Positions 1,447 through 64,000 of a DNA stretch of 64,000 nt are shown here, one piece after another; positions within the stretch are counted from its first letter, which is position 1, and each line of letters begins with the position of its first letter. The DNA is taken from contig CAXXLZ010000002.1 of NCBI GenBank assembly GCA_963675595.2, positions 64,001-128,000 on the forward strand, written 5' to 3'. Source of the stretch: Thermodesulfobacteriota bacterium (GTDB lineage: Bacteria; Desulfobacterota; Desulfarculia; JACQYL01). The notes under the pieces are model-generated. The model worked only from the letters and a program-made list of their open reading frames with translations. It searched no databases and was not told the origin of the DNA. The position numbers were made by a program, and so were the translations under genes.

Positions 1447-3132
1447 TCACACCGCGCTGCTTGCGTGGGACGACCGGAAATATTTCCATTCCAGCTTGTT
1501 TCTCTTTTTCATCACTTCGTCGTAGAGGTTCAGCACCTCGTTTTCGTATTTCGAGAAAGTCCTTTTCTTTCCTCTGCGGTATCGCTTGTTGAAGTAGCTG
1601 CTGTCCAGGACGCGGTCGCAGAGGAACATGACCTTCTCAAAAACCTCCTCGTCAAAACGCACCAGTTCCCGCTCCCTGGACAGAAACTCCGAAAGCAAAG
1701 ACAGCCTCTCCCTATAGGAGAGGGGTCTGGCGGACGCGTCTTTTGCTTCCAGGGCGTTTCTGAGGTTGAGCACCTCATACTCCTGCCTCAGGACCTCCAC
1801 CAGCTTCCTCACCGAACCCAGAAGCTCCGGGTATTTGAGTAGTTCAGGGATCGCTTCCGGATTGTCCAGATAGCTGGAGATGGTCTGATTAATCCTTCGA
1901 AACGTCCTCGACGAATACCCTAAGATAGCCCTGCGATGCTTCGAAAGCCAAGCAAACAAGAACTTCAGACGGCTTAAGTGGTCTTCCGTGCCATAGACGA
2001 CTTCCTGGCCCCTATACAGAATCTGTCCCTGATGCTCTCCGCGCACAATGTCGTTTAGTCGGACCACGTACCTGCGCGTGGTTCTCAAAAGATCCAGGTT
2101 CGTGAAGCGTTCCCCGGTCACGGGGTGAATGGCTTCCTGCTCCACGACCGAAAGCGCCCGGTCCTCGACGATGTTGTCGGGATTGTATTCATGCTGGATG
2201 TACGTGACCTTGAAGATGATCACCTTCCGCCGAGAATCCAGGAAGAAACCGCCGTCTTCCAGTGCCTGTGCTTCCGCCTTCGAATCAGTATCAACGGAGA
2301 CGAGAGCAAATTTCTCGATCAGGGGCCATCGTCCTTTACCTCTCGATGAAAGGAAGGTGATGACCCGGTCCGAGTTCCCCAAGACGGAAATGAAGAAGTT
2401 TTCGTTCATCTCGGCCAAGCGCAAGGCGAACATGGCGGCCGATGTTCGACGCTCGGACGCGATGGGAAAGCCGAACAGCTCCATGAGATAGCGATAGACG
2501 AACAGCCGGTTTCTTTCGTAAAGCTTGTCGTCGCCGCTTCTGAACTTCCTGATTCTCAGGCCGAACCGCTTGAGTTCCCAGTCCAAATCCGATGGAAAAG
2601 AGGCATAGATGCCGAGCAGCCTGTAGGACCCGTCCGCAGCCTGAGCGATCACGTGACCTCGATCCATTCGGCAGACGAAGGACAAAGTACGCGTATAATT
2701 CTTGAGCGAAGTAATATCGGCGGATCCCAGCTCGGAGATCAGGGTTTCGTGATCGCGCCTTGGAAGTCTGGCCAGAAACAAATCGATGTTGCGATGCATG
2801 ATCGATTCGGAGGATGCGTGAGACGTGGGAATGTGGAAAAAGTCGAACTGAAACGGCTCGTTTTGATAGACCAGTGTTCTGTCGAAAGCGAGTGTGGAGA
2901 AACCCGGCAAGTCTCTGTATTCCGTCAGTGAAGAATCGAACGGCGGCTGGAGCTCTCTGACCTCGGGTACGGGATAGTTGTCGGAATAAGGTTCTAGGAG
3001 GCCGACTTTGACCTGGGCGTGCTTTATGAATGATTTGAGAGTGAAGAGGTCTTTGATGCCTTCGCCGTCCCAAGAGGGACTGAATGGCAAGACTCCGCCT
3101 ATCTCCGCTTGGTGGAAATAATCGCCGGACAC
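1447..3132 (-). CDS. Hypothetical protein (561 aa)
   Basis: Long ORF with protein-like composition, downstream of the flagellar operon; no motif recognised. Confidence 0.8.
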   Translation of the reverse strand: MSGDYFHQAEIGGVLPFSPSWDGEGIKDLFTLKSFIKHAQVKVGLLEPYSDNYPVPEVRELQPPFDSSLTEYRDLPGFSTLAFDRTLVYQNEPFQFDFFHIPTSHASSESIMHRNIDLFLARLPRRDHETLISELGSADITSLKNYTRTLSFVCRMDRGHVIAQAADGSYRLLGIYASFPSDLDWELKRFGLRIRKFRSGDDKLYERNRLFVYRYLMELFGFPIASERRTSAAMFALRLAEMNENFFISVLGNSDRVITFLSSRGKGRWPLIEKFALVSVDTDSKAEAQALEDGGFFLDSRRKVIIFKVTYIQHEYNPDNIVEDRALSVVEQEAIHPVTGERFTNLDLLRTTRRYVVRLNDIVRGEHQGQILYRGQEVVYGTEDHLSRLKFLFAWLSKHRRAILGYSSRTFRRINQTISSYLDNPEAIPELLKYPELLGSVRKLVEVLRQEYEVLNLRNALEAKDASARPLSYRERLSLLSEFLSRERELVRFDEEVFEKVMFLCDRVLDSSYFNKRYRRGKKRTFSKYENEVLNLYDEVMKKRNKLEWKYFRSSHASSAV

Positions 3133-3232
3133 GAAACCAGAACCCCTGTGCGGAAACGCGTACCGTTCAACGGGCGACGAGGAGCTTCCGACCTCTCGTG
3201 CTCGCTCGGGATATCGGCGAAATTAGGGGAAA

Positions 3233-3763
3233 TCACAGGAGCTTGACTCGGTTGATCCAGATCTCCCTCACCACCGAAGACCCAATTTTCAGGTTGACGT
3301 TCCTGACCACCGTATTAAATCGCGAATAATGATCGGAAACCGCCCCTCCGCCGTGGAGCAAATGACCGTAGATCTCATGTCGGAGTTCGGGGAGGTGAGA
3401 AAGCACCAAGTCGCCGCGTTCCGAATCCACGGTCAAATCAACCGAAATGATTCTGTACGCCTTGCCTTCCGATCCCGCGGGAATGATGAAGGGTTTGAGT
3501 GATAGAACCCTTCGGTTGAACAATGCCGCCACTGCCGGCTTCCGGTAGATAAACGGCCCGATGCCGTTTCCCAGCCAATGGGCGTAACCCACGGCTATCG
3601 CCGACAATAGAAATAAGACAAGAAGCACATAAACGACGCCGGCCTTTCCAAACACCCGAAAGCGCTTCTCCCCGAATTCGCGACGTTCCTCGTTTCCGAC
3701 GGTACCCACCGAAAATTCTTGTGGAACAAAGCCCTTACGAACGGGCACGACATTCAAGGCCAT
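3233..3763 (-). CDS. Divergent FliL-like single-TM protein
   Basis: N-terminal TM helix then LKPFIIP...ISVDLTV...PELRHEIY...VREIWI, resembling the FliL C-terminal domain. Confidence 0.55.
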   Translation of the reverse strand: MALNVVPVRKGFVPQEFSVGTVGNEERREFGEKRFRVFGKAGVVYVLLVLFLLSAIAVGYAHWLGNGIGPFIYRKPAVAALFNRRVLSLKPFIIPAGSEGKAYRIISVDLTVDSERGDLVLSHLPELRHEIYGHLLHGGGAVSDHYSRFNTVVRNVNLKIGSSVVREIWINRVKLL

Positions 3764-12620: not shown

Positions 12621-12990
12621 CCCCTTCCACTCCGCCGCCGCGGCGCAGCAGGCCCGCCAGCATTTTGGGAAACCTTCCCGTTTCCGGCGCGACGGTGCGA
12701 TCGTATTCCGCCGACCCGGACCCATCTCCCTCCAGTCCGCCGAGGAGGCTGATCCGCTCGGACGTCAGCCCCAGAATCATTCTGCGTCCTTCCACCTCGA
12801 CCACCGCAATACTCTTCTTGGCTCCCAATGAACGCTGCCCCAGCACACGGATCGGAACCGCGCCGCTCCCGGGAGCCGCCCCTTTCCAAATGGTTCTTTT
12901 CGCCACATACAGCAGACCAAACATGATCCCCAACACGATCGCGAGAGCCGAAAACATTCTGGTCAGGCCGAAAAAAAAATCCGATTCCAT
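12607..12990 (-). CDS. fliO: Flagellar protein FliO/FliZ
   Basis: TM helix then IRVLGQRSLGAKKSIAVVEV; lies between fliN and fliP. Confidence 0.88.
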   Translation of the reverse strand: MESDFFFGLTRMFSALAIVLGIMFGLLYVAKRTIWKGAAPGSGAVPIRVLGQRSLGAKKSIAVVEVEGRRMILGLTSERISLLGGLEGDGSGSAEYDRTVAPETGRFPKMLAGLLRRGGGVEGDGRA

Positions 12991-53563: not shown

Positions 53564-55027
53564 ATGATTCGAGGACTGAAAGCCGGAGTCATGAATCTGG
53601 AAGGCTTCGGTTTGAACATGTTCAGTCGTGATCAATTAGATGAACTCCACTATGCAACCCTCGACGTCCTTCAGAACTACGGCGTCCAGGTGTATTGCGA
53701 CGAAGCCCTGGATATTTTCGACGGAGCCGGGGCCTTTGTCGACCGAAAGACCAATCAGGTGCGCATCCCCGCCAATTTGGTGGAAGATGCCATTATATCG
53801 GCACCCAGTACGATTCTGCTGGCGGGACGTACGCCGGAATACGACGTCACCATCCAGCCTCGTCGACTCGGTTTTACCTGTTTCGGCGCGGGCGTCATGG
53901 TTGTGGACCCCTTCAACGGCGAATTCCGGGAGTCCAACAAGACCGACGTGGGTCACACGGCATTGGCTTGCGACGCCATGGATAACGTGGACATTTATTC
54001 CAGCGCCGTGGTGGCCAGGGATATTTCGGGCCCCGCCACCGACCTTCACGAAGCGGAAGCGTTTCTAAGCAACACCATGAAACACTGTCAGCACATCGAT
54101 TTGACGGGCGGCCCGGGAGCCAAGAAGTTCTTTGAAATGGCCGCGGCCGTCGTCGGTGGGCTGGACAAGCTGCGGGAGCGGCCCTTGGTATCCGCTCTGG
54201 TTTGCCCTACGAGCCCCCTGCAGCTCCACACCCATACCGCCGAGATCATCATTGAGTGCGCACGGTACGGGGTGCCCGTGAACGTTCTTTCCATGGCCAT
54301 GTCGGGAGCCTCTTCCCCGGTCACTCTGGCGGGAACCCTGGTGACGCACAACGCGGAAGTGCTCAGCGGCATCGTGTTGCACCAGCTCACCGCCAAGGGA
54401 GCGCCGGTCATTTACGGCAGCTCGACCACGACCTTCGACATGAATTACACCACCGCTCCCGTTGGTTCGCCTGAATTGGGAATGATCAGCGCCGGCGTGG
54501 TGGAACTGGCTCGTTACTACATGCTTCCGAGCTACGTCGCGGGAACATAGGCTGACAGCAAACTGTCCGACGCTCAGGCCGGGCATGAAAAGACCATCAC
54601 CTCTTTGCTTCCGGCGTTGGCGGGCGCCAACTTGATCTACGGGATGGGAATGCTGGAGTTAGGAGTGACTTTCAGCTTCGCTCAACTCCTGATCGATAAC
54701 GAAATCGCCGGGATGGTCAAAAGAGTGGTCCAGGGCATTCATATATCGGACGCGACCCTCGGGGTCGAGCTGATCAAAAAGGTCGGAGCCGGGAAGGACT
54801 TTCTCGCTGAAAAACACACCAGAGAGTGGATGGGATGCGAGCAGTCCAAGGTGAAGTTGATCGACCGCAGAATGCGAGGAAACTGGACGCGAAGAGGGGC
54901 CAAGGATCTGGGGCAGGCCGCCACGGAAAAGGCCAGGGAGCTTCTGGAAACCCATAAGGTGCCGGCGCTTCCGGACAACGTGCTGTCCACGTTTAGATCC
55001 ATCATTGAGGACGTTGAGAACGAATAA
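53564..55027 (+). CDS. mttB: Pyrrolysine-containing trimethylamine methyltransferase MttB (487 aa, Pyl329 at TAG 54548-54550)
   Basis: Frame continues through TAG: ...[41 protein letters not shown], the canonical MttB Pyl context; merges ORFs 53564..54550 and 54605..55027. Confidence 0.95.
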
Positions 55028-57116: not shown

Positions 57117-57764
57117 ATGGATAAGAAAGAATGGTTCGAGAAAGCGGCCAAGACCGTGCTTGACGCGGATCAGGAAGCAGCCGTTAAGGTGGCTGAGGAG
57201 GCCGTTGCAGCCGGTATCAACCCCTTGGAAATGCTTAACCAGGGTTTTTCGGAAGGGATCATGCGTATTGGTGATCTTTTCGACCGAGGAGAAGTTTTTC
57301 TCCCCGAACTGATCATCGCTTCCGAAGCAATGGTCGCCGCCGTCAAGGTGCTGGAAGCGGCGTTGCCCGCTGAAGAACACAAGGAGAAGCTGGGCAAAGT
57401 CGTCATCGGAAGCATCGAAGGAGACGTTCACGACATCGGCAAAGGAATCATGGTCACCATGCTTCGCGTGTACGGGTTCGAGGTCTACGATCTCGGAAGA
57501 GACGTTCCCATCAAGTCCTTCGTTGACAAGGCGAAGGAGGTGGACGCGGACTTTGTGGGTTCTTCGGCCTTGATGACCACCACACAGGTGGGCCAGAAAG
57601 CGCTCGAGGCAGCACTGAGTGAAGCGGGACTCCGCGACAAGGTAAAAACCATGGTGGGCGGTGCTGTGGCTACCCAGCACTGGGCCAACAAAATCGGCGC
57701 CGATCTTTACGCCGAAACCGCGACGGAAGCCGTTATGAAGCTCAAGGAGCTTGCAGGCGGCTGA
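57117..57764 (+). CDS. mtbC: Dimethylamine corrinoid protein
   Basis: [22 protein letters not shown]; adjacent to mtbB. Confidence 0.88.
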
Positions 57765-57780
57765 GAAGGGAGGTGAGTCC

Positions 57781-59181
57781 ATGAAGAAATACCTCACCCG
57801 TCGGGGTGACGGAGTCCGCATCGAGATGACGGATGACGAACTCAGAGCCGACTTTGAGTCGGGCATCCAGGATGCGGCGGAAAGAGGGAAGATCGACCCC
57901 CTTTCCAACGAGGACCTCGACCGGCTGATGGACATTTTCACTGATCCCAATCGAATCGTCGGTGTGGAACCCGGGAACGAAGTTCCCTTGACCCACGATA
58001 TCGGTACGCTTCGTTTGATGGGCGATCAGGGAAACAGCGGCGTGGGAATACCGCTGAGCAGGGTCCACGGGATCCAGGTGCATGAACGGGCTTTCTGTTC
58101 CGACTCCATGGAGCTTGGACACATTGATTACAGCTTCAAGCCCATTAAACCCGTGATCGCCATGGAACAGCAGGAGTACGAGAATGCACAAATGTGCACG
58201 ATCATTCCTCTGTTGTACGGCGCCATGCCCAATCTGGGCCTTTATTACGCCCCGGACGGCCCCTTCGGGAACCCGTCCGATCTCTTGCCCGCGGGCAAAG
58301 TCAAAGAGGCGCTGGAAGCCCAGGAACAAGCGGTGGAACACGCCACCAAAGACATGATCTATATCTCCGAGAAGCTCGCAAATGTGGGCTGCGACGGGAT
58401 CAACTTCGACACCACCGGAGCCGCGGGCGACACGGATTTCGCCGCCACGCTCAAGGCGGTGGAACATCTGAAAAAGACCACCAACCTGGCCGTCCAGGTG
58501 GGCATGGCGGGCGAGTTCGTTCTGGGAATGCACGGCAGCCTCAAGTACAACGGAACCAGGCTGGCCGGGCTCTATCCCCACAAGCAACTCGAATTGGTGG
58601 AACAAGCGGGGGCGGACATCTTCGGACCCGTGGTAAACACCAAGCCGAGCAAGTCCATGGCTTGGAATCTGGCCCGGGCGGTTACCTTCGTCAAGGCGTG
58701 TACGGCCGTCGCCAAGATTCCCATCCATGTGAATATGGGAATGGGCGTGGGCGGCTCCCCCGTTTTCGAGACTCCGCCCATCGACAGCGTGACCCGCGCA
58801 TCCAAGGCCATGGTGGAAATCGGCCGCGCGGACGGGTTGTAGATAGGCGTGGGGGACCCCCTTGGGATGCCGATAGCTCACGGCATGGCAGCAGGCATGG
58901 GCGGAATCAGGACGGCCGGAGATCTGGTGGTCCGAATGCAACTGAGCCGCAAGATGCGGATTCAGGAAGCGAAAGCCTATGTGGCCGACAAGCTGAAAGT
59001 ATCCCCGGTAGACCTGTCGGACGAGAACGTGATGAGAGAAGTCCGCGAGGAGCTGGACATCGGAGTCATCACTTCGGTCCCGGGTTGTGCCAAAGGAATG
59101 GAAGCGAAAGCGAAAATCGCCGACTTGCTCGGCATTGAAATCAACAGTGTCAGCCGTTTCAAACGGAAGCTCGGTCTATAG
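57781..59181 (+). CDS. mtbB: Pyrrolysine-containing dimethylamine methyltransferase MtbB (466 aa, Pyl354 at TAG 58840-58842)
   Basis: [12 protein letters not shown]-terminus; ...[20 protein letters not shown]...[10 protein letters not shown], the canonical MtbB Pyl context; merges two ORF-track entries. Confidence 0.95.
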
Positions 59182-59191
59182 ACCGGAACAA

Positions 59192-59220
59192 GCGGGCTTC
59201 CCTCGGGAAGCCCGCCCTTT
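59192..59220 (+). terminator. Intrinsic terminator-like hairpin after mtbB
   Basis: gcgggcttcc-ctcg-ggaagcccgc followed by ccttt. Confidence 0.65.
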
Positions 59221-59275
59221 CAGGCGCCCGCTGGAGAGCACCAGACTCCCGGACGCCAATACAAGGAATCATTTG

Positions 59276-59866
59276 GTGAGCCGAAAAAACACACCCGACC
59301 TTCAGTCAGCGTTCCATTCCGCCGACCCCTCTTTGGAAGAAGCGTTCGAAGCGGTCTCCCGGGAGCACGGCGTTCGCGTGTATCCTCTTGAATTGGAGAG
59401 CATCAAGCCTTCGTACAGCATCCGTCTCAAGTGTCAGGTGCCCTTGTGCGAATATTACGGTGTGTCCAAAGTATGCCCGCCGAACATCCCGGATGTCCCC
59501 GAATTCCGTGAAGCGATGAAGGATTATCGGATGGCGTTTCTGGTGGTGTACACGGAACGCATCGACAACATTCAGCACTATCGAAAGGACTTCACCGCGG
59601 AGCGAAAGCTCGCCGACGCGGTCTCCGCCTTGGAGGCGGCGGCTTATCGGCACGGTTGGTATCGGGCGTTGGGACTGTGCGTGGGGGGTTGCAAGCTGTG
59701 CCCAAGCTGTGCGGGGGCCGACGAGCCATGTCGGCATCCCTTTAAGGCCCGCCCCAGTCCGGAAGGGTTCGGCATCGACGTAACCGAACTCGCCCGCAAT
59801 CTGGGAGTGGCGGTCGAATGGCCTCCCCGCGACCAAGTCAACTTCTTGGGCCTTCTGTTCCTCTGA
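59276..59866 (+). CDS. DUF2284-like Cys-rich metal-binding protein
   Basis: RLKCQVPLCEYYG...CPP, GGCKLCPSC, CRHPFKARPSPEGFGIDV; start approximate (TTG 59273 or GTG 59276). Confidence 0.8.
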   Translation: MSRKNTPDLQSAFHSADPSLEEAFEAVSREHGVRVYPLELESIKPSYSIRLKCQVPLCEYYGVSKVCPPNIPDVPEFREAMKDYRMAFLVVYTERIDNIQHYRKDFTAERKLADAVSALEAAAYRHGWYRALGLCVGGCKLCPSCAGADEPCRHPFKARPSPEGFGIDVTELARNLGVAVEWPPRDQVNFLGLLFL

Positions 59867-59968: not shown

Positions 59969-60937
59969 ATGTTCAGCATGCTCAGCTGTTATGATCGGGT
60001 CCGCAAGGAAGTCGTCGGCAGGGAAGTGGAAGCCAAATCCATTCTCGTGGCCATGGATGCGGGAAAACACATACTTCTCGAAGGACCTCCGGGAACCTCC
60101 AAGTCCACTCTTTTAAGAATCATCGCGAAGGAAAGCGGCATCCCCTTGTATATCATCGAAGGCAACATCGATCTGACCCCGGCCAAGCTCGTGGGGCATT
60201 TCAATCCCTCCAAGGTGATGTCCGACAGCTATCAGCCCGAATATTTCGAAAAGGGTCCCCTGACGAACGCCATGGAAGTAGGAGGGATACTGTACATCGA
60301 GGAATTTAACCGGATGCCCGCCGACGTAGCCAATGTACTCATCTCCCCCATGGAAGAAGGCGAAATGACCATTCCCAGGTACGGCAAGATCAAGGCCGTA
60401 CGCCCCTTCACCGTGATCGCGGCCCAGAACCCTTACGATGATGTGGGCACCGTGAGGGTGAGCAGGGCCTTTATGGATCGGATTTGCCTGATCCGCATGA
60501 CGTATCAGAGTGAAGAAGAAGAGATGGAGATCGTACGGAAAAGATCCACGTCCGAGGATCTCGAAGCGATCGCTTTGGCGGTGGCCATGGCGAGAAAGAC
60601 CAGGGAGCACGAGGACATCAAGCTGGGAGCGTCCGTGCGTGCCGCCATCGATCTGGCGGACATCTATTGGGGACTGCAGAAACTGGCCCGGGACCCGGTC
60701 CGGAACTTCCTCATCGCCGCAAGAATGGCCATGTCCAATAAAATATGGCTCAATGAGATGGCCGCCGACACGGCGGATACGATCATTGAACAGATTTTCG
60801 CCTCCCTGCGCAGCAAATACGGCCGCTTTTTGTACAGGAAGGAAGGCGACGAGGCCGGCGACGGCGTGGAGACGTCGGGCCAAGAATCCCTCGAAGCGGA
60901 CTTGGATATCGAAGAAAAAAAAAAGATCGCTATGTAG
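59969..60937 (+). CDS. MoxR/chelatase-like AAA+ ATPase
   Basis: Walker A GPPGTSKST, variant Walker B LYIEE, AAQNP, SRAFMDR, ASVR; acidic tail ending in an A10 run. Confidence 0.9.
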   Translation: MFSMLSCYDRVRKEVVGREVEAKSILVAMDAGKHILLEGPPGTSKSTLLRIIAKESGIPLYIIEGNIDLTPAKLVGHFNPSKVMSDSYQPEYFEKGPLTNAMEVGGILYIEEFNRMPADVANVLISPMEEGEMTIPRYGKIKAVRPFTVIAAQNPYDDVGTVRVSRAFMDRICLIRMTYQSEEEEMEIVRKRSTSEDLEAIALAVAMARKTREHEDIKLGASVRAAIDLADIYWGLQKLARDPVRNFLIAARMAMSNKIWLNEMAADTADTIIEQIFASLRSKYGRFLYRKEGDEAGDGVETSGQESLEADLDIEEKKKIAM

Positions 60938-60960
60938 GGGATAAGTTCCTCGATCGGATT

Positions 60961-61791
60961 ATGACGGGGTCGTCCTATTATTACCGGGTGGCCACGCACC
61001 TGAACAACAACCCGGACGATCTGGTCCCTTTTTTTGAGAAGCAGGACTCCCTGGAAGTATTCGCCAACATTCTGGGGATGCTGAAAAAGGACGTGAGGGA
61101 GATGGCGGCCCAGATCGCCGGCCGCATCATCATCAAGATCGCCAAACAAATCGCGGACACGGGGACGCGTTCCGGCAAGCTCAAGTTGGTCAGAGGGTGG
61201 GTGGACGGCGCGGAACTTGAGCTCGATCTGAGCCTTGAACAATACACCGAAGCGCCCGAGTTGGGCATCGTGGAAAACCTGGTTTCCTATATCAGAAAGC
61301 GGGAGAAGGAAGCCTTCATCATGTTCCTGGACCACAGCTACTCCATGAAGGGGCTCAAGATCGTTTTAGCGGCCATCACCGCGGCTTCCATCGCTCAGCA
61401 CTTCAAGCGGGACTATGCCATCATGGCGTTCAGCAATTCGGTCACCATGCTCAAAGCCATCGACGAATCCACCGGACCCGAGGAGATTCTGCAAAGGCTC
61501 TTCGCTCTGGAACTTTATGGCGACACGGATTTTCAGCGGGCGTTGGAGGCCGGCCTTTACCACCTGAGAAACTTCGACCGGAAGAGAGGGCTGATTCTAA
61601 CGGACGGAGCCTGGAACCAGGGTGGAGATCCACTGGACGCGGCCGCTCGTTTCGACAAGCTCAGCGCCATAGGCTTTCCCCCGTCCAAACACGAAAAAAT
61701 CAGGATTCTGGCGCTCAAAGGCAAAGGGGAATGCGCCTTCGTGGAAAACCAGCATGAGATATCTCGAGCCATCATCCGTTGCCTGAACTGA
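60961..61791 (+). CDS. von Willebrand factor A (MIDAS) domain; probably expressed as a frameshift fusion with the AAA+ ATPase
   Basis: DHSYS (DxSxS), GDTD, ILTDG; no SD before ATG 60961; frame open upstream across the slippery site. Confidence 0.85.
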   Translation: MTGSSYYYRVATHLNNNPDDLVPFFEKQDSLEVFANILGMLKKDVREMAAQIAGRIIIKIAKQIADTGTRSGKLKLVRGWVDGAELELDLSLEQYTEAPELGIVENLVSYIRKREKEAFIMFLDHSYSMKGLKIVLAAITAASIAQHFKRDYAIMAFSNSVTMLKAIDESTGPEEILQRLFALELYGDTDFQRALEAGLYHLRNFDRKRGLILTDGAWNQGGDPLDAAARFDKLSAIGFPPSKHEKIRILALKGKGECAFVENQHEISRAIIRCLN

Positions 61792-61961: not shown

Positions 61962-62288
61962 ATGGGCATGCCTCAACGAAAAGCACCAGCGGCGACGAAG
62001 AAGGCGAAGAAGACTTTCTTTCGCAAAAGAGAAGACTTGGGAATGGTGCTTCAAAAGGTGAAGCTCTGGCCTTCGCGGAACGGGACCCTGCATGGAGTGC
62101 GCACCATCGTGGTGAAGGGAGCTTTCATTGATTTCACCACCCATTGCGGCCAGAAGCTACGCATCAAGAATTCGAAGAGCAGCAGGGTGTCCCGGTGGCT
62201 CAGGAACAAGTGGTACGTCAGACCTTGTTCCGGGTGTCGGGTCCCTACATGGAAACTTGAGAAATACTCCCAAACGTCTTTTCGATAA
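61962..62288 (+). CDS. pylSn: Pyrrolysyl-tRNA synthetase N-terminal domain protein
   Basis: KVKLWPSRNGTLHG, TTHCG, SRWLRNKW, CSGCRVPTWKLEKY; directly follows pylT. Confidence 0.93.
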   Translation: MGMPQRKAPAATKKAKKTFFRKREDLGMVLQKVKLWPSRNGTLHGVRTIVVKGAFIDFTTHCGQKLRIKNSKSSRVSRWLRNKWYVRPCSGCRVPTWKLEKYSQTSFR

Positions 62289-62343
62289 CCGACGAGTTCG
62301 ATCCTTCGCCGATCGATCTCCACGATGGAAGGTGAAAGTGCCC

Positions 62344-63516
62344 ATGACCGGACGAGACAATCGTCTCACAGCTGTTTTGGACGGAGTGCTGCAAGGAGGC
62401 GCCCTATCCCGCCGAGACGCGGAAACCCTGCTTTCCGCTTCAGACCCTCAGGATGTGGACAGAATTACCCAAGCGGCCCGGATCATGAGGGCGCGGCTTT
62501 TCGCCGACTCCGTTTTTCTTTACGGTTTCGTCTATTTTTCGACCTATTGCAGGAATTCCTGTACGTTTTGTTTCTACCGCAGGGGCAACAAGCAAAGCCC
62601 CAGGTACCGAAAGACCGAAACGGAGGTCAAGGACATCGCCCTCGGACTTGCCGCGTCCGGGGTTCATCTGGTGGATTTGACCATGGGTGAGGACCCATGG
62701 ATCTACGAGCGGCAGGATTACGGCGTACTCTACCGGATAGTGGGAGGCATCCGAGACGCCACGTCGGTTCCCCTCATGATTTCGCCCGGAGCCGTGCCCG
62801 ACGAGGTGCTCCGGACCTTGGCGGCTCAAGGTGTGGACTGGCTGGCCCTGTACCAGGAAACCCACAACCGAAGTCTATACGGGAAGCTCAGAGTCGGACA
62901 GAGTTACGACGAACGGGTGGAAAAGCGGAATCTGGGCGCACGGCTGGGAATGCTCGTGGAAGACGGGATTCTGCTGGGCGTGGGAGAATCCGTGCGGGAC
63001 CGGGCGGATTCCATCATGAACATGCGCTCCGGCGGATCGGACCAGGTCCGCGTCATGAGCTTTGTTCCGCAACCGGATACCCCCCTCGCCGATCGACAAA
63101 CGCCTCCCAGGCGACTCGAGCGCCTTTGCATCGCGGTCATGCGCCTCGCCATGCCGGATCGGCTGATCCCGGCTTCTCTGGACGTGGACGGCATCAACGG
63201 GCTGCGGATGCGTCTCGAAGCGGGAGCCAACGTGGTCACTTCCATCATACCGCCCCGAAGTCGCCTCGCGGGAGTTTCCCAGAGCAGTTTGGATATAGAG
63301 CCCGGTCACAGAACCGTGGCGGAGGTACGGAAGATTCTCGACGATATGGGCATGAAAGCGGCTTCCTTGTCTGAGTATGAATCATGGATGAAACAAAGAA
63401 AGCTGTTGAAAACCGGCCGGTCGGAACAAATCCAAATCGGTCTTTCCGCACTTCCCGACACGCACGCCGGCGACGTACCGAGCCATCCCCTCGGTCTGCA
63501 TCACACATATCCTTGA
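62344..63516 (+). CDS. pylB: Methylornithine synthase PylB (radical SAM)
   Basis: YGFVYFSTYCRNSCTFC (CxxxCxxC), DLTMGEDP, LYQETH, LIPASLDVDG, GANVVTSIIP; start set at ATG 62344. Confidence 0.95.
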   Translation: MTGRDNRLTAVLDGVLQGGALSRRDAETLLSASDPQDVDRITQAARIMRARLFADSVFLYGFVYFSTYCRNSCTFCFYRRGNKQSPRYRKTETEVKDIALGLAASGVHLVDLTMGEDPWIYERQDYGVLYRIVGGIRDATSVPLMISPGAVPDEVLRTLAAQGVDWLALYQETHNRSLYGKLRVGQSYDERVEKRNLGARLGMLVEDGILLGVGESVRDRADSIMNMRSGGSDQVRVMSFVPQPDTPLADRQTPPRRLERLCIAVMRLAMPDRLIPASLDVDGINGLRMRLEAGANVVTSIIPPRSRLAGVSQSSLDIEPGHRTVAEVRKILDDMGMKAASLSEYESWMKQRKLLKTGRSEQIQIGLSALPDTHAGDVPSHPLGLHHTYP

Positions 63517-63653: not shown

Positions 63654-64000
63654 ATGACAGCCAAAGAACGAGTCATGGCCGTCCTGAACCACGAGAAACC
63701 GGATCAAATGCCCGTTTTTGGGGCAAATTCCACGGTCACCTATGATCAAATGGAAAAGGTATCCGCTTTCTGGCCTAAAGGTCACGAGGACGGCGAGACC
63801 ATGGCCAAGCAGGCCATGGCCGCTTACACCATGCTGGGATTCGATGCGGTCCGGGTCCCTTTCTGCCAGACCTTCGAAGCGGAAGCTTTGGGATGCAAAG
63901 TCAAGTCGGGCGGCGACAAGGGTATTCCCGGCATTGATCATCCCCCGCCGTACAAGCTCGAGGACACCCCGGCCTTCCCCTCGGACTTCCTTTCCAGAGG
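63654..64000 (+). CDS. MtaA/CmuA (UroD-fold) methylcobamide methyltransferase, truncated by window edge
   Basis: SD GGAGG; MTAKERVMAVLNHEKPDQMPVF...GFDAVRVPFCQTFEAEALGC. Confidence 0.85.
   Translation, partial: MTAKERVMAVLNHEKPDQMPVFGANSTVTYDQMEKVSAFWPKGHEDGETMAKQAMAAYTMLGFDAVRVPFCQTFEAEALGCKVKSGGDKGIPGIDHPPPYKLEDTPAFPSDFLSR

Follow-up and report, generated by a model that had tools for sequence, protein, structure and literature searches.

The stretch of DNA examined here (‘the window’) is 64,000 nucleotides (nt) long and comes from a Thermodesulfobacteriota bacterium (GenBank assembly GCA_963675595.2, contig CAXXLZ010000002.1, positions 64,001 to 128,000 of the forward strand). Positions are counted from its first letter. 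At 59969-61791 lie two open reading frames (ORFs), one for an AAA+ ATPase that runs through ten consecutive A's (A10) and stops shortly afterwards, and one in the -1 frame for a vWA domain with a metal-ion-dependent adhesion site (MIDAS). We propose that the two are a single recoded gene and, judging from the comparisons described below, consider some kind of programmed recoding very probable here. The parts of the gene, all on the forward (+) strand, are these:

59969-61791, +: the whole proposed recoded gene, from the AAA+ part through the slip site to the vWA part; fused homologues align over the junction
59969-60937, +: zero-frame ORF for a MoxR-class AAA+ ATPase, short product of 322 amino acids (aa); Pfam and PDB-chain matches, Walker A GPPGTSKS
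60915-60924, +: A10, the candidate slip site, with A_AAA_AAG in phase at 60919-60925
60935-60937, +: zero-frame TAG stop that closes the short product, inside the -1-frame Val-Gly codons GTA GGG
60925-61791, +: -1-frame part, 288 codons and TGA; linker peptide, helical subdomain and vWA domain with MIDAS
60961-60963, +: ATG taken by gene callers as the vWA start, without a Shine-Dalgarno sequence and not conserved

The reading frames at the junction

The zero-frame sequence starting at 60911, GAAGAAAAAAAAAAGATCGCTATGTAG, is read over A10 as two Glu and three Lys codons, and then as Ile, Ala, Met and TAG, the TAG being the fourth codon past AAG. From the ATG at 59969 to that at 60961 is 992 nt, which places the vWA ORF in the -1 frame. 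This frame is free of stops from about 60790 to 61791, and the stop of the vWA ORF is at 61789-61791. GAGGA stands upstream of the ATG at 59969; no GGAGG-like Shine-Dalgarno sequence was seen ahead of the ATG at 60961. The coordinates thus confirm the layout described in an earlier, sequence-only reading of this DNA, and with it the lack of a Shine-Dalgarno sequence at the vWA ATG.

By standard decoding, the gene would yield a 322-aa MoxR/NorQ-like AAA+ ATPase, ended by the TAG ten bases past A10. A programmed slip in the run would divert part of the output to the -1 frame, and produce a fusion in which the ATPase is followed by a disordered linker, a helical subdomain and a vWA (MIDAS) adaptor. 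From the coordinates, a slip in A10 gives 319 + 288 = 607 residues, in agreement with the product sizes of 322 and about 607 aa proposed earlier. Read-through of the TAG was considered as the fusing event and rejected: past the TAG the zero frame continues for only eight codons to the TGA at 60962, and a ribosome that reads through cannot enter the vWA frame. Comparative sequence evidence, set out in the following sections, supports the central idea that this is one gene.

Reality and rarity of the run

Contigs from the Logan collection for four public runs were aligned to positions 60500-61400. Two of the runs (X1 and X2) are of one sample, possibly the source of the assembly; the third (X3) is of another sample, and the fourth (X4) is of another study and carries another organism label. 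The contigs of all four contain no inserted or deleted bases and have the same run, A10. The X4 contig differs by 30 substitutions and no gaps in 901 nt, and so represents a strain 3.3% divergent. The sequence-only reading had allowed that A10 might be a misassembled A11; independent contigs settle the point, and A10 is not an assembly error.

Homopolymers are error-prone, in-frame homologues of the gene exist, and the copy in a relative (G004) has several frame breaks, all of which would suit a fault of assembly, behind which the true gene is in frame, or a gene broken recently and now dead. We regard this as extremely unlikely, given the zero indels in contigs of four runs from two studies, the occurrence of the -1 state in 46 non-redundant clusters of loci, and halves that are both intact and conserved. 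The copy in G004, a genome of the same order as that of the window (L002:466-2281), has A10 at the junction, but the reading frame of both halves is broken at several further places. Either it is a pseudogene or the assembly is poorly polished (the genome is 71% complete).

Runs of this length are scarce. The genome is 6.79 Mb long with a GC content of 0.561, and has only four A/T runs of at least 10. Those of at least nine number 35, of which 11 are in copies of an IS3-family element. In the 289,051 nt of the 38 genome loci analysed (see below), 34 runs of at least nine A's fall in the junction region, in 33 loci, and only six A/T runs of at least nine fall elsewhere. One locus, L011, has a second A9 98 nt upstream of the junction run.

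Conservation of the junction run

The vWA ORF, used as a query, recovers more than 100 clusters of proteins of about 276 aa, and 51 in-frame AAA+-vWA fusions (47 of 600-628 aa and four of 523-556 aa) that are up to 71% identical. Across the junction, the fusions match the zero frame of the window up to the lysines and its -1 frame directly afterwards. Among the ‘split’ proteins, P0045 is called from upstream of the lysines, and P0047 is without the methionine.

The junction was compared in two sets of loci. The genome set comprises 42 loci from contigs of one genome per species; 38 of these were analysed, which with the window makes 39, and four (L035, L045, L046 and L050) were left out because the upstream flank was missing or the match partial. 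The metagenome set comprises 80 loci, of which 61 were analysed and 19 left out, 12 with a match that was partial or at the locus edge and seven with less than 400 nt upstream. The sets overlap, and non-redundant counts are clusters at 95% nucleotide identity.

A run of A9 to A12 lies exactly at the junction in 34 of the 39 genome loci, and is lacking in five. In 27 the vWA part is in the -1 frame (A9 in 10, A10 in 10, A11 in six and A12 in one); in six the two parts are in frame (A10 in five, A9 in one); and one locus is in the +1 state. The metagenome loci are similar: 51 of 61 have the run, 40 of them in the -1 state (A9 to A14), 10 in frame and one +1, and 10 have none. Over both sets, A8 to A14 is found at the junction in 85 of 100 loci (-1, 67; in frame, 16; +1, two), which reduce to 58 clusters (46, 11 and one, respectively). 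The cluster mates of both +1 loci are -1 siblings that differ by one base. These counts, the existence of fused homologues and the conservation of the -1-frame peptide described in the next section uphold the view that the run and the -1 offset are features of the family.

The phyla with run-bearing loci are Thermodesulfobacteriota, Bacillota, Nitrospirota and Actinomycetota, the last of these GC-rich. The seven actinobacterial loci, of GC 0.63-0.66, have A9 at the junction, and Lys codons elsewhere in the two ORFs are AAG rather than AAA by 163 to 31. A slip-prone motif at the ORF overlap thus appears to be conserved beyond what codon usage predicts. In a tree of the vWA part, the in-frame state arose at least three to four times within a -1 majority. 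The -1 state is present on both sides of the deepest run-bearing split, that between the actinobacterial clade and the rest, and the clades that keep it have about 40% protein identity between them.

Close relatives sometimes differ in run length (L053 has A10 where L009, L038 and L052 have A11; L063 has A14 where L064 and L109 have A13). Together with the repeated origin of the in-frame state, and the slipperiness of poly-A/T tracts for DNA polymerase as well (PMC3711429; here and below, papers are cited for the passages available to us), this would suit a DNA contingency locus. Slippage during replication would then toggle the gene between fused (on) and split (off), with no programmed slip in its expression. 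Such a switch would be expected to show all three frames, and the states are far from random (67, 16 and two). Moreover, the -1 state is kept over clades of about 40% identity, all four sequencing runs of two studies have A10, the 3.3% divergent strain included, and the zero-frame stop is under selection (GTA in 18 of 18 loci, see below). We judge a contingency locus to be very unlikely. The three long-run loci just mentioned (L063, L064 and L109) belong to one metagenomic lineage with A13 or A14 in the -1 state, and the length varies among near-identical contigs with a compensating base in the flank.

Two departures from the common layout occur. In one actinobacterial lineage (L039, at about 920-930, and L110), the run has become four A's, a G and four more A's, with the -1 layout and the TAG kept; this is a weakened or decayed slip site. 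In another subclade (L030 and L079) there is no A-run and both parts share a frame. L030, from Desulfospira joergensenii DSM 10085, has an in-frame TGA (L030:3920-3922) exactly at the position of its relatives' lysine run, and L079 has one within the linker (L079:1501-1503). These TGA codons could be programmed read-through in place of slippage, or they could be decay.

Selection on both products

Split and fused loci alike conserve the peptide that the -1 frame encodes right after the run. Over nine codons of 18 split loci, entropy by codon position is 0.65/0.53/1.16; variation is concentrated on third positions, as is typical of sequence that codes in the -1 frame. In ten loci, a TAA that uses the first two A's shuts the -1 frame just upstream of the run, and the zero-frame stop follows 6-30 nt downstream of it. 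The shift in these must therefore fall inside the run.

Were the vWA part an ordinary second gene, begun at the ATG at 60961 by re-initiation or coupling after the TAG, the A-run would be no more than a lysine-rich tail. The window's ATG is indeed 24 nt past the stop, 10 further loci have a start codon in the same place, and gene callers produce from such starts the more than 100 clusters of about 276 aa. We nevertheless find this highly improbable. The ATG has no Shine-Dalgarno sequence, and the stretch between stop and ATG is conserved as -1-frame protein. At the position of the window's ATG (+34 to +39 nt), a start codon is present in 11 of the 28 out-of-frame genome-set loci and absent from 17, and five of the 28 have no start codon anywhere in that region. 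The first start of the actinobacterial loci comes 80-95 nt past the run, within conserved sequence, and AAA is chosen in them against the codon usage of GC-rich genomes. Finally, fused homologues exist. The homologues are thus not, as a whole, separate genes with their own start, in keeping with the one-gene view of the sequence-only reading.

The short product appears to be under selection as well. The zero-frame stop is TAG in all 27 of the genome-set and 38 of the 40 metagenome -1 loci (65 of 67). In the main clade it is built from the Val-Gly codon pair of the other frame, and all 18 split loci have GTA for the Val. The Gly codon that follows varies fully at its third base (1.95 bits), and in one in-frame lineage the Val codon is relaxed to GTG. 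An invariant GTA, which preserves the zero-frame stop, can be understood only if the cell has a use for the short product. In-frame relatives retain A8 to A10. In those of the genome set, a -1-frame TGA lies 0-4 nt past the run in five of six and a +1-frame stop 12-53 nt on. Slippage would give the short form in these, and hence two products as well.

The organisms in which the short product so regularly ends at TAG are ones that read TAG as pyrrolysine in the neighbouring genes. Read-through of the stop would append 2-119 residues, which are not conserved, and the preference for TAG may merely follow from the overlapping codons (xTA, then G).

Which step slips

The shift could be made by RNA polymerase, by the ribosome or by both. 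We lean towards the transcription-led version, in which the slip would chiefly be RNA polymerase adding one A to the mRNA, and -1 ribosomal slippage on A_AAA_AAG may contribute. Bacterial RNA polymerase holds a hybrid of 9-10 bp, and slippage becomes efficient at runs of nine (PMC5009743). In chelatase cassettes placed in Escherichia coli, A7 shifted 10%, A9 40% and A11 63% (PMC3711429). Among the 67 -1 loci, no run is shorter than nine A's, and the base that follows varies (G, 32; C, 18; T, 17). An alignment of 18 -1/+1 junctions contains neither a conserved structure (consensus -0.6 kcal/mol, 0 covarying pairs) nor a conserved upstream element resembling a Shine-Dalgarno sequence. Runs that are never below nine, a variable next base and the lack of conserved structure together favour slippage by RNA polymerase.

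The sequence-only reading had noted a possible hairpin after the run. The inverted repeat is there (60925-29 with 60951-55, and 60936-40 with 60946-50) and folds at -7.8 kcal/mol; a role for it as stimulator did not hold up. It is not conserved, 55 of 200 shuffled sequences fold too, and the 76-nt downstream stretch of the window has a fold z of +0.33 relative to shuffles.

Programmed -1 frameshifting by the ribosome on A_AAA_AAG (60919-60925), with the polymerase playing a minor part, would give the same two products. The heptamer is in phase in the window, and A_AAA_AAN is in phase at every -1 locus, since all the runs have at least nine A's; sequence alone therefore cannot separate ribosome from polymerase. 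The run is followed most often by G (32 of 67), and the chlD case has been termed programmed ribosomal frameshifting (PMC9227772). We nonetheless think a mainly ribosomal shift unlikely. Seven A's suffice for the heptamer, and the runs never have fewer than nine; C or T follows the run in 35 of the 67; the downstream structure is not conserved in the 18 sequences; and their alignment lacks an upstream element. The window's hairpin, besides folding no better than shuffles, begins right at the end of the run. The run is kept, furthermore, by in-frame relatives, and two +1 variants occur.

Protein family and structure

The ATPase part matches Pfam AAA_5 (80.7 bits, cut-off 22) and AAA_3 (60.4 bits, cut-off 27), and its translation includes the Walker A motif GPPGTSKS and the Walker B motif YIEEF. 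Among solved chains the nearest by sequence are midasin (95 bits), the MoxR-like 2r44 (75 bits) and NorQ (46 bits), with CbbQ also among the nearest and BchI at 24.9 bits. By NCBIfam cut-offs it belongs to none of the named equivalogs GvpN, NorQ or CbbQ; GvpN scores highest, with 79.6 bits (cut-off 266.8). The ATPase thus appears to be of the MoxR class and of no named subfamily. The second part matches VWA_CoxE (32.9 bits, cut-off 26.4) and VWA (25.7 bits). Its MIDAS (DxSxS, T, D) is complete, and D124, S126, S128, T189 and D215 are invariant in 28 sequences.

Membership of the ChlI/ChlD/CobS family was considered and rejected. The window ATPase scores 24.7 bits with BchD-ChlD (TIGR02031; cut-off 499.55) and 30.9 bits with TIGR02442 (cut-off 779.45), and P0122, a natural fused homologue, scores 27.4 and 22.8 bits with the same two models. 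The sequence-only reading had entertained both a MoxR and a chelatase kinship; the first stands, by virtue of AAA_5 and AAA_3, and the second falls. The protein is MoxR/NorQ-like, not ChlD.

A structure was modelled for P0122 rather than for the window protein (57-sequence alignment, mean pLDDT 80). In the model, residues 1-290 form an AAA+ module. A linker with pLDDT below 50 follows (293-324), which holds KKKK at 319-322; residues 341-400 are a helical subdomain and residues 409-611 have a vWA fold. Foldseek places NorQ of NorQD complexes first (TMt 0.84-0.86) and CbbQ next (0.80-0.83); sequence identity to NorQ is 18-20%.

Comparison with known recoded and AAA+/vWA systems

The closest precedent is the chlD-type chelatase gene (PMC3711429, PMC9227772, PMC5009743). 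There too, one gene gives an AAA+ protein alone and an AAA+-linker-vWA protein, a poly-A slip site in the -1 configuration stands just past the AAA+ module, and in-frame fused relatives exist. An acidic or disordered linker and a C-terminal MIDAS vWA domain are also held in common, an architecture that is shared without being proof of membership. The families differ, however: the window gene is 25-26% identical to the chlD halves of its own genome over partial alignments, and it adjoins mtbB, mttB and pyl genes rather than cobN or chlH. What the two share is a logic, not a family. A true chlD-type gene, for a putative cobaltochelatase, is present in the genome of the window, split by A9 in the -1 configuration (L133:1856-1864; G000:C2:433856-433864). 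Its halves match TIGR02442 over positions 1-343 (476 bits) and 380-637 (189 bits).

To our knowledge, recoding has not been reported for NorQ/NorD or CbbQ/CbbO, the systems closest in structure. The window gene shares AAA_5/AAA_3 and a vWA domain with full MIDAS with these, and NorQ and CbbQ are the best structural matches of the fused homologue P0122 (9qh4-9qhg, 6l1q and 5c3c). The window gene also adjoins the enzyme it would serve. In those systems motor and adaptor are separate genes, whereas in the window the adaptor is fused to a motor subunit. The NorQD hexamer receives a single vWA finger in its pore (PMC13036017), an arrangement that, by analogy, would suit a mixture of many short and few fused subunits.

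In dnaX, which encodes tau and gamma, E. coli uses -1 programmed ribosomal frameshifting on A_AAA_AAG, and Thermus thermophilus uses transcriptional slippage at a run of nine (PMC5009743, PMC3711429). As in the window family, one gene with an A-run makes two products, in dnaX of fixed ratio; stops lie close by in the other frames; and both layouts are known, one with the long form encoded in frame and slippage giving the short one, the other with these roles exchanged. The dnaX protein is unrelated, and E. coli dnaX has a conserved Shine-Dalgarno-like element and stem-loop, neither of which was found in the window family.

The IS3-family orfA/orfB genes likewise have an A-run at a -1 overlap; they encode the transposase of a mobile element, not a cellular chaperone. 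The genome of the window carries 11 copies of such an element (HTH_Tnp_1 orfA, rve orfB), with A9 at the orfA/orfB overlap (e.g. L132:695-703; G000:C1:123695-123703).

In the passages of the literature available to us, nothing was found on this MoxR-type gene, its recoding or its connection with pyl genes, although the 146 candidate clusters of PMC3711429 might include it. It is apparently, then, a new family using a known trick: the chlD precedent is in print, and the present family seems unreported. It would be a second, non-orthologous AAA+/vWA family, conserved over four phyla, to use a poly-A slip for making motor and motor-adaptor subunits. Natural flips between -1 and in-frame layouts, with the run kept, make it a good system for studying a selected ratio, and polymerase versus ribosome. 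For annotation, it means that more than 100 clusters now split into an ‘AAA family ATPase’ and a ‘VWA domain-containing protein’ of about 276 aa, the latter with an artefactual start, should be joined.

Neighbourhood and possible function

The gene stands among genes for pyrrolysine-dependent methylamine metabolism:

57117-57764, +: MtbC-like dimethylamine corrinoid protein (pyl_corrinoid, 244 bits)
57751-59181, +: mtbB, dimethylamine methyltransferase, with an in-frame TAG at 58840 (Dimeth_Pyl, 561 bits)
59200-59866, +: DUF2284 metal-binding protein, start not fixed (137 bits)
62128-63516, +: pylB, methylornithine synthase (TIGR03910, 449 bits, cut-off 348)

The window also contains a corrinoid protein gene and mttB, with an in-frame TAG at 54548. 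Downstream of pylB are a gene for an MtaA/MtbA-like methylcobamide methyltransferase, which starts at window position 63654, and then, 1.6 kb downstream of pylB, one for RamA (738 bits); the two ORFs are at L131:154-1155 and 1638-3320 (G000:C2:127654-130820). No pylC, pylD or pylS was seen in the next 8 kb. As the sequence-only reading had noticed, two kinds of recoding would thus meet in one locus, amber-pyrrolysine in mtbB and mttB and the slip in the gene described here.

This setting recurs. The order MtbC-MtbB-DUF2284-gene-(PylB or MttB) is complete in 12 loci and partial in three more, DUF2284 adjoins or lies near the gene in 15 loci, and MtbB or MttB is within a few kb in six of the actinobacterial loci. 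The gene is among the most constant neighbours of bacterial mtbB. Of 60 relatives of the window genome that were searched, only four have any match, none of them informative; the gene therefore seems to follow pyl/methylamine loci rather than taxonomy. A paralogous subclade is without these neighbours and adjoins CobW, the corrinoid adenosyltransferase CobO/BtuR, RACo or a gene of the homocysteine S-methyltransferase type. Because these neighbourhoods are conserved, we infer a function that concerns corrinoid-dependent methyl transfer.

The short and long forms would co-assemble into a hexameric motor with few adaptor arms, like NorQ-NorD or ChlI-ChlD. The machine would remodel the neighbouring dimethylamine and trimethylamine methyltransferases and corrinoid proteins, or load metal or cofactor into them. 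A role in cofactor loading or repair, as first suggested in the sequence-only reading, would fit the conserved synteny. Reductive reactivation is probably not the task of this gene because RamA is encoded nearby. We rejected the gene as a RamA-like reductive activase, there being a separate RamA (738 bits) downstream of pylB already.

One may go further, and suppose that the slip site is the stoichiometry device of an unnoticed maturation machine in bacterial pyrrolysine-dependent methylamine metabolism. This joint reading is speculative, and we think it rather improbable as a whole. About one subunit in a few would be a vWA fusion, giving a NorQD-like hexamer with one or two arms. The arms would dock on MtbB/MtbC and there load or reset the cofactor, the DUF2284 metal protein perhaps taking part. 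As the short form ends at UAG, the balance of products may respond to pyrrolysine decoding. In some lineages (D. joergensenii, L030), the A-run has apparently been swapped for an in-frame UGA; if this is leaky, one gene family would have two recoding routes to the same pair of products. And should the gene encode a maturation factor, obtaining these methyltransferases in active form from a foreign host may require it.

Several points weigh against the account we prefer. The run is missing in 15 of 100 loci, and so is not indispensable to the family; the 15 comprise fused genes, two with in-frame TGA, one with an in-frame TAG further upstream, and the interrupted-run lineage. Eleven of 28 loci, the window included, have an ATG about 36 nt past the run, from which independent initiation of a vWA-only protein is possible. 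An in-phase A_AAA_AAN heptamer is present in every -1 locus, as a ribosomal shift would have it. The comparison of sequencing runs was of contigs, not reads, in which minority length variants of the DNA are invisible, and some DNA heterogeneity is possible. The proposed link with corrinoid-dependent methyl transfer is drawn from neighbourhood and fold, and RamA, the known activase, is present too.

Other features of the window

Besides A10, the 64-kb window has one other A/T run of at least nine, an A9 at 12971-12979. Two of its large ORFs were scanned as well, and encode a histidine kinase and a FliD-like protein.

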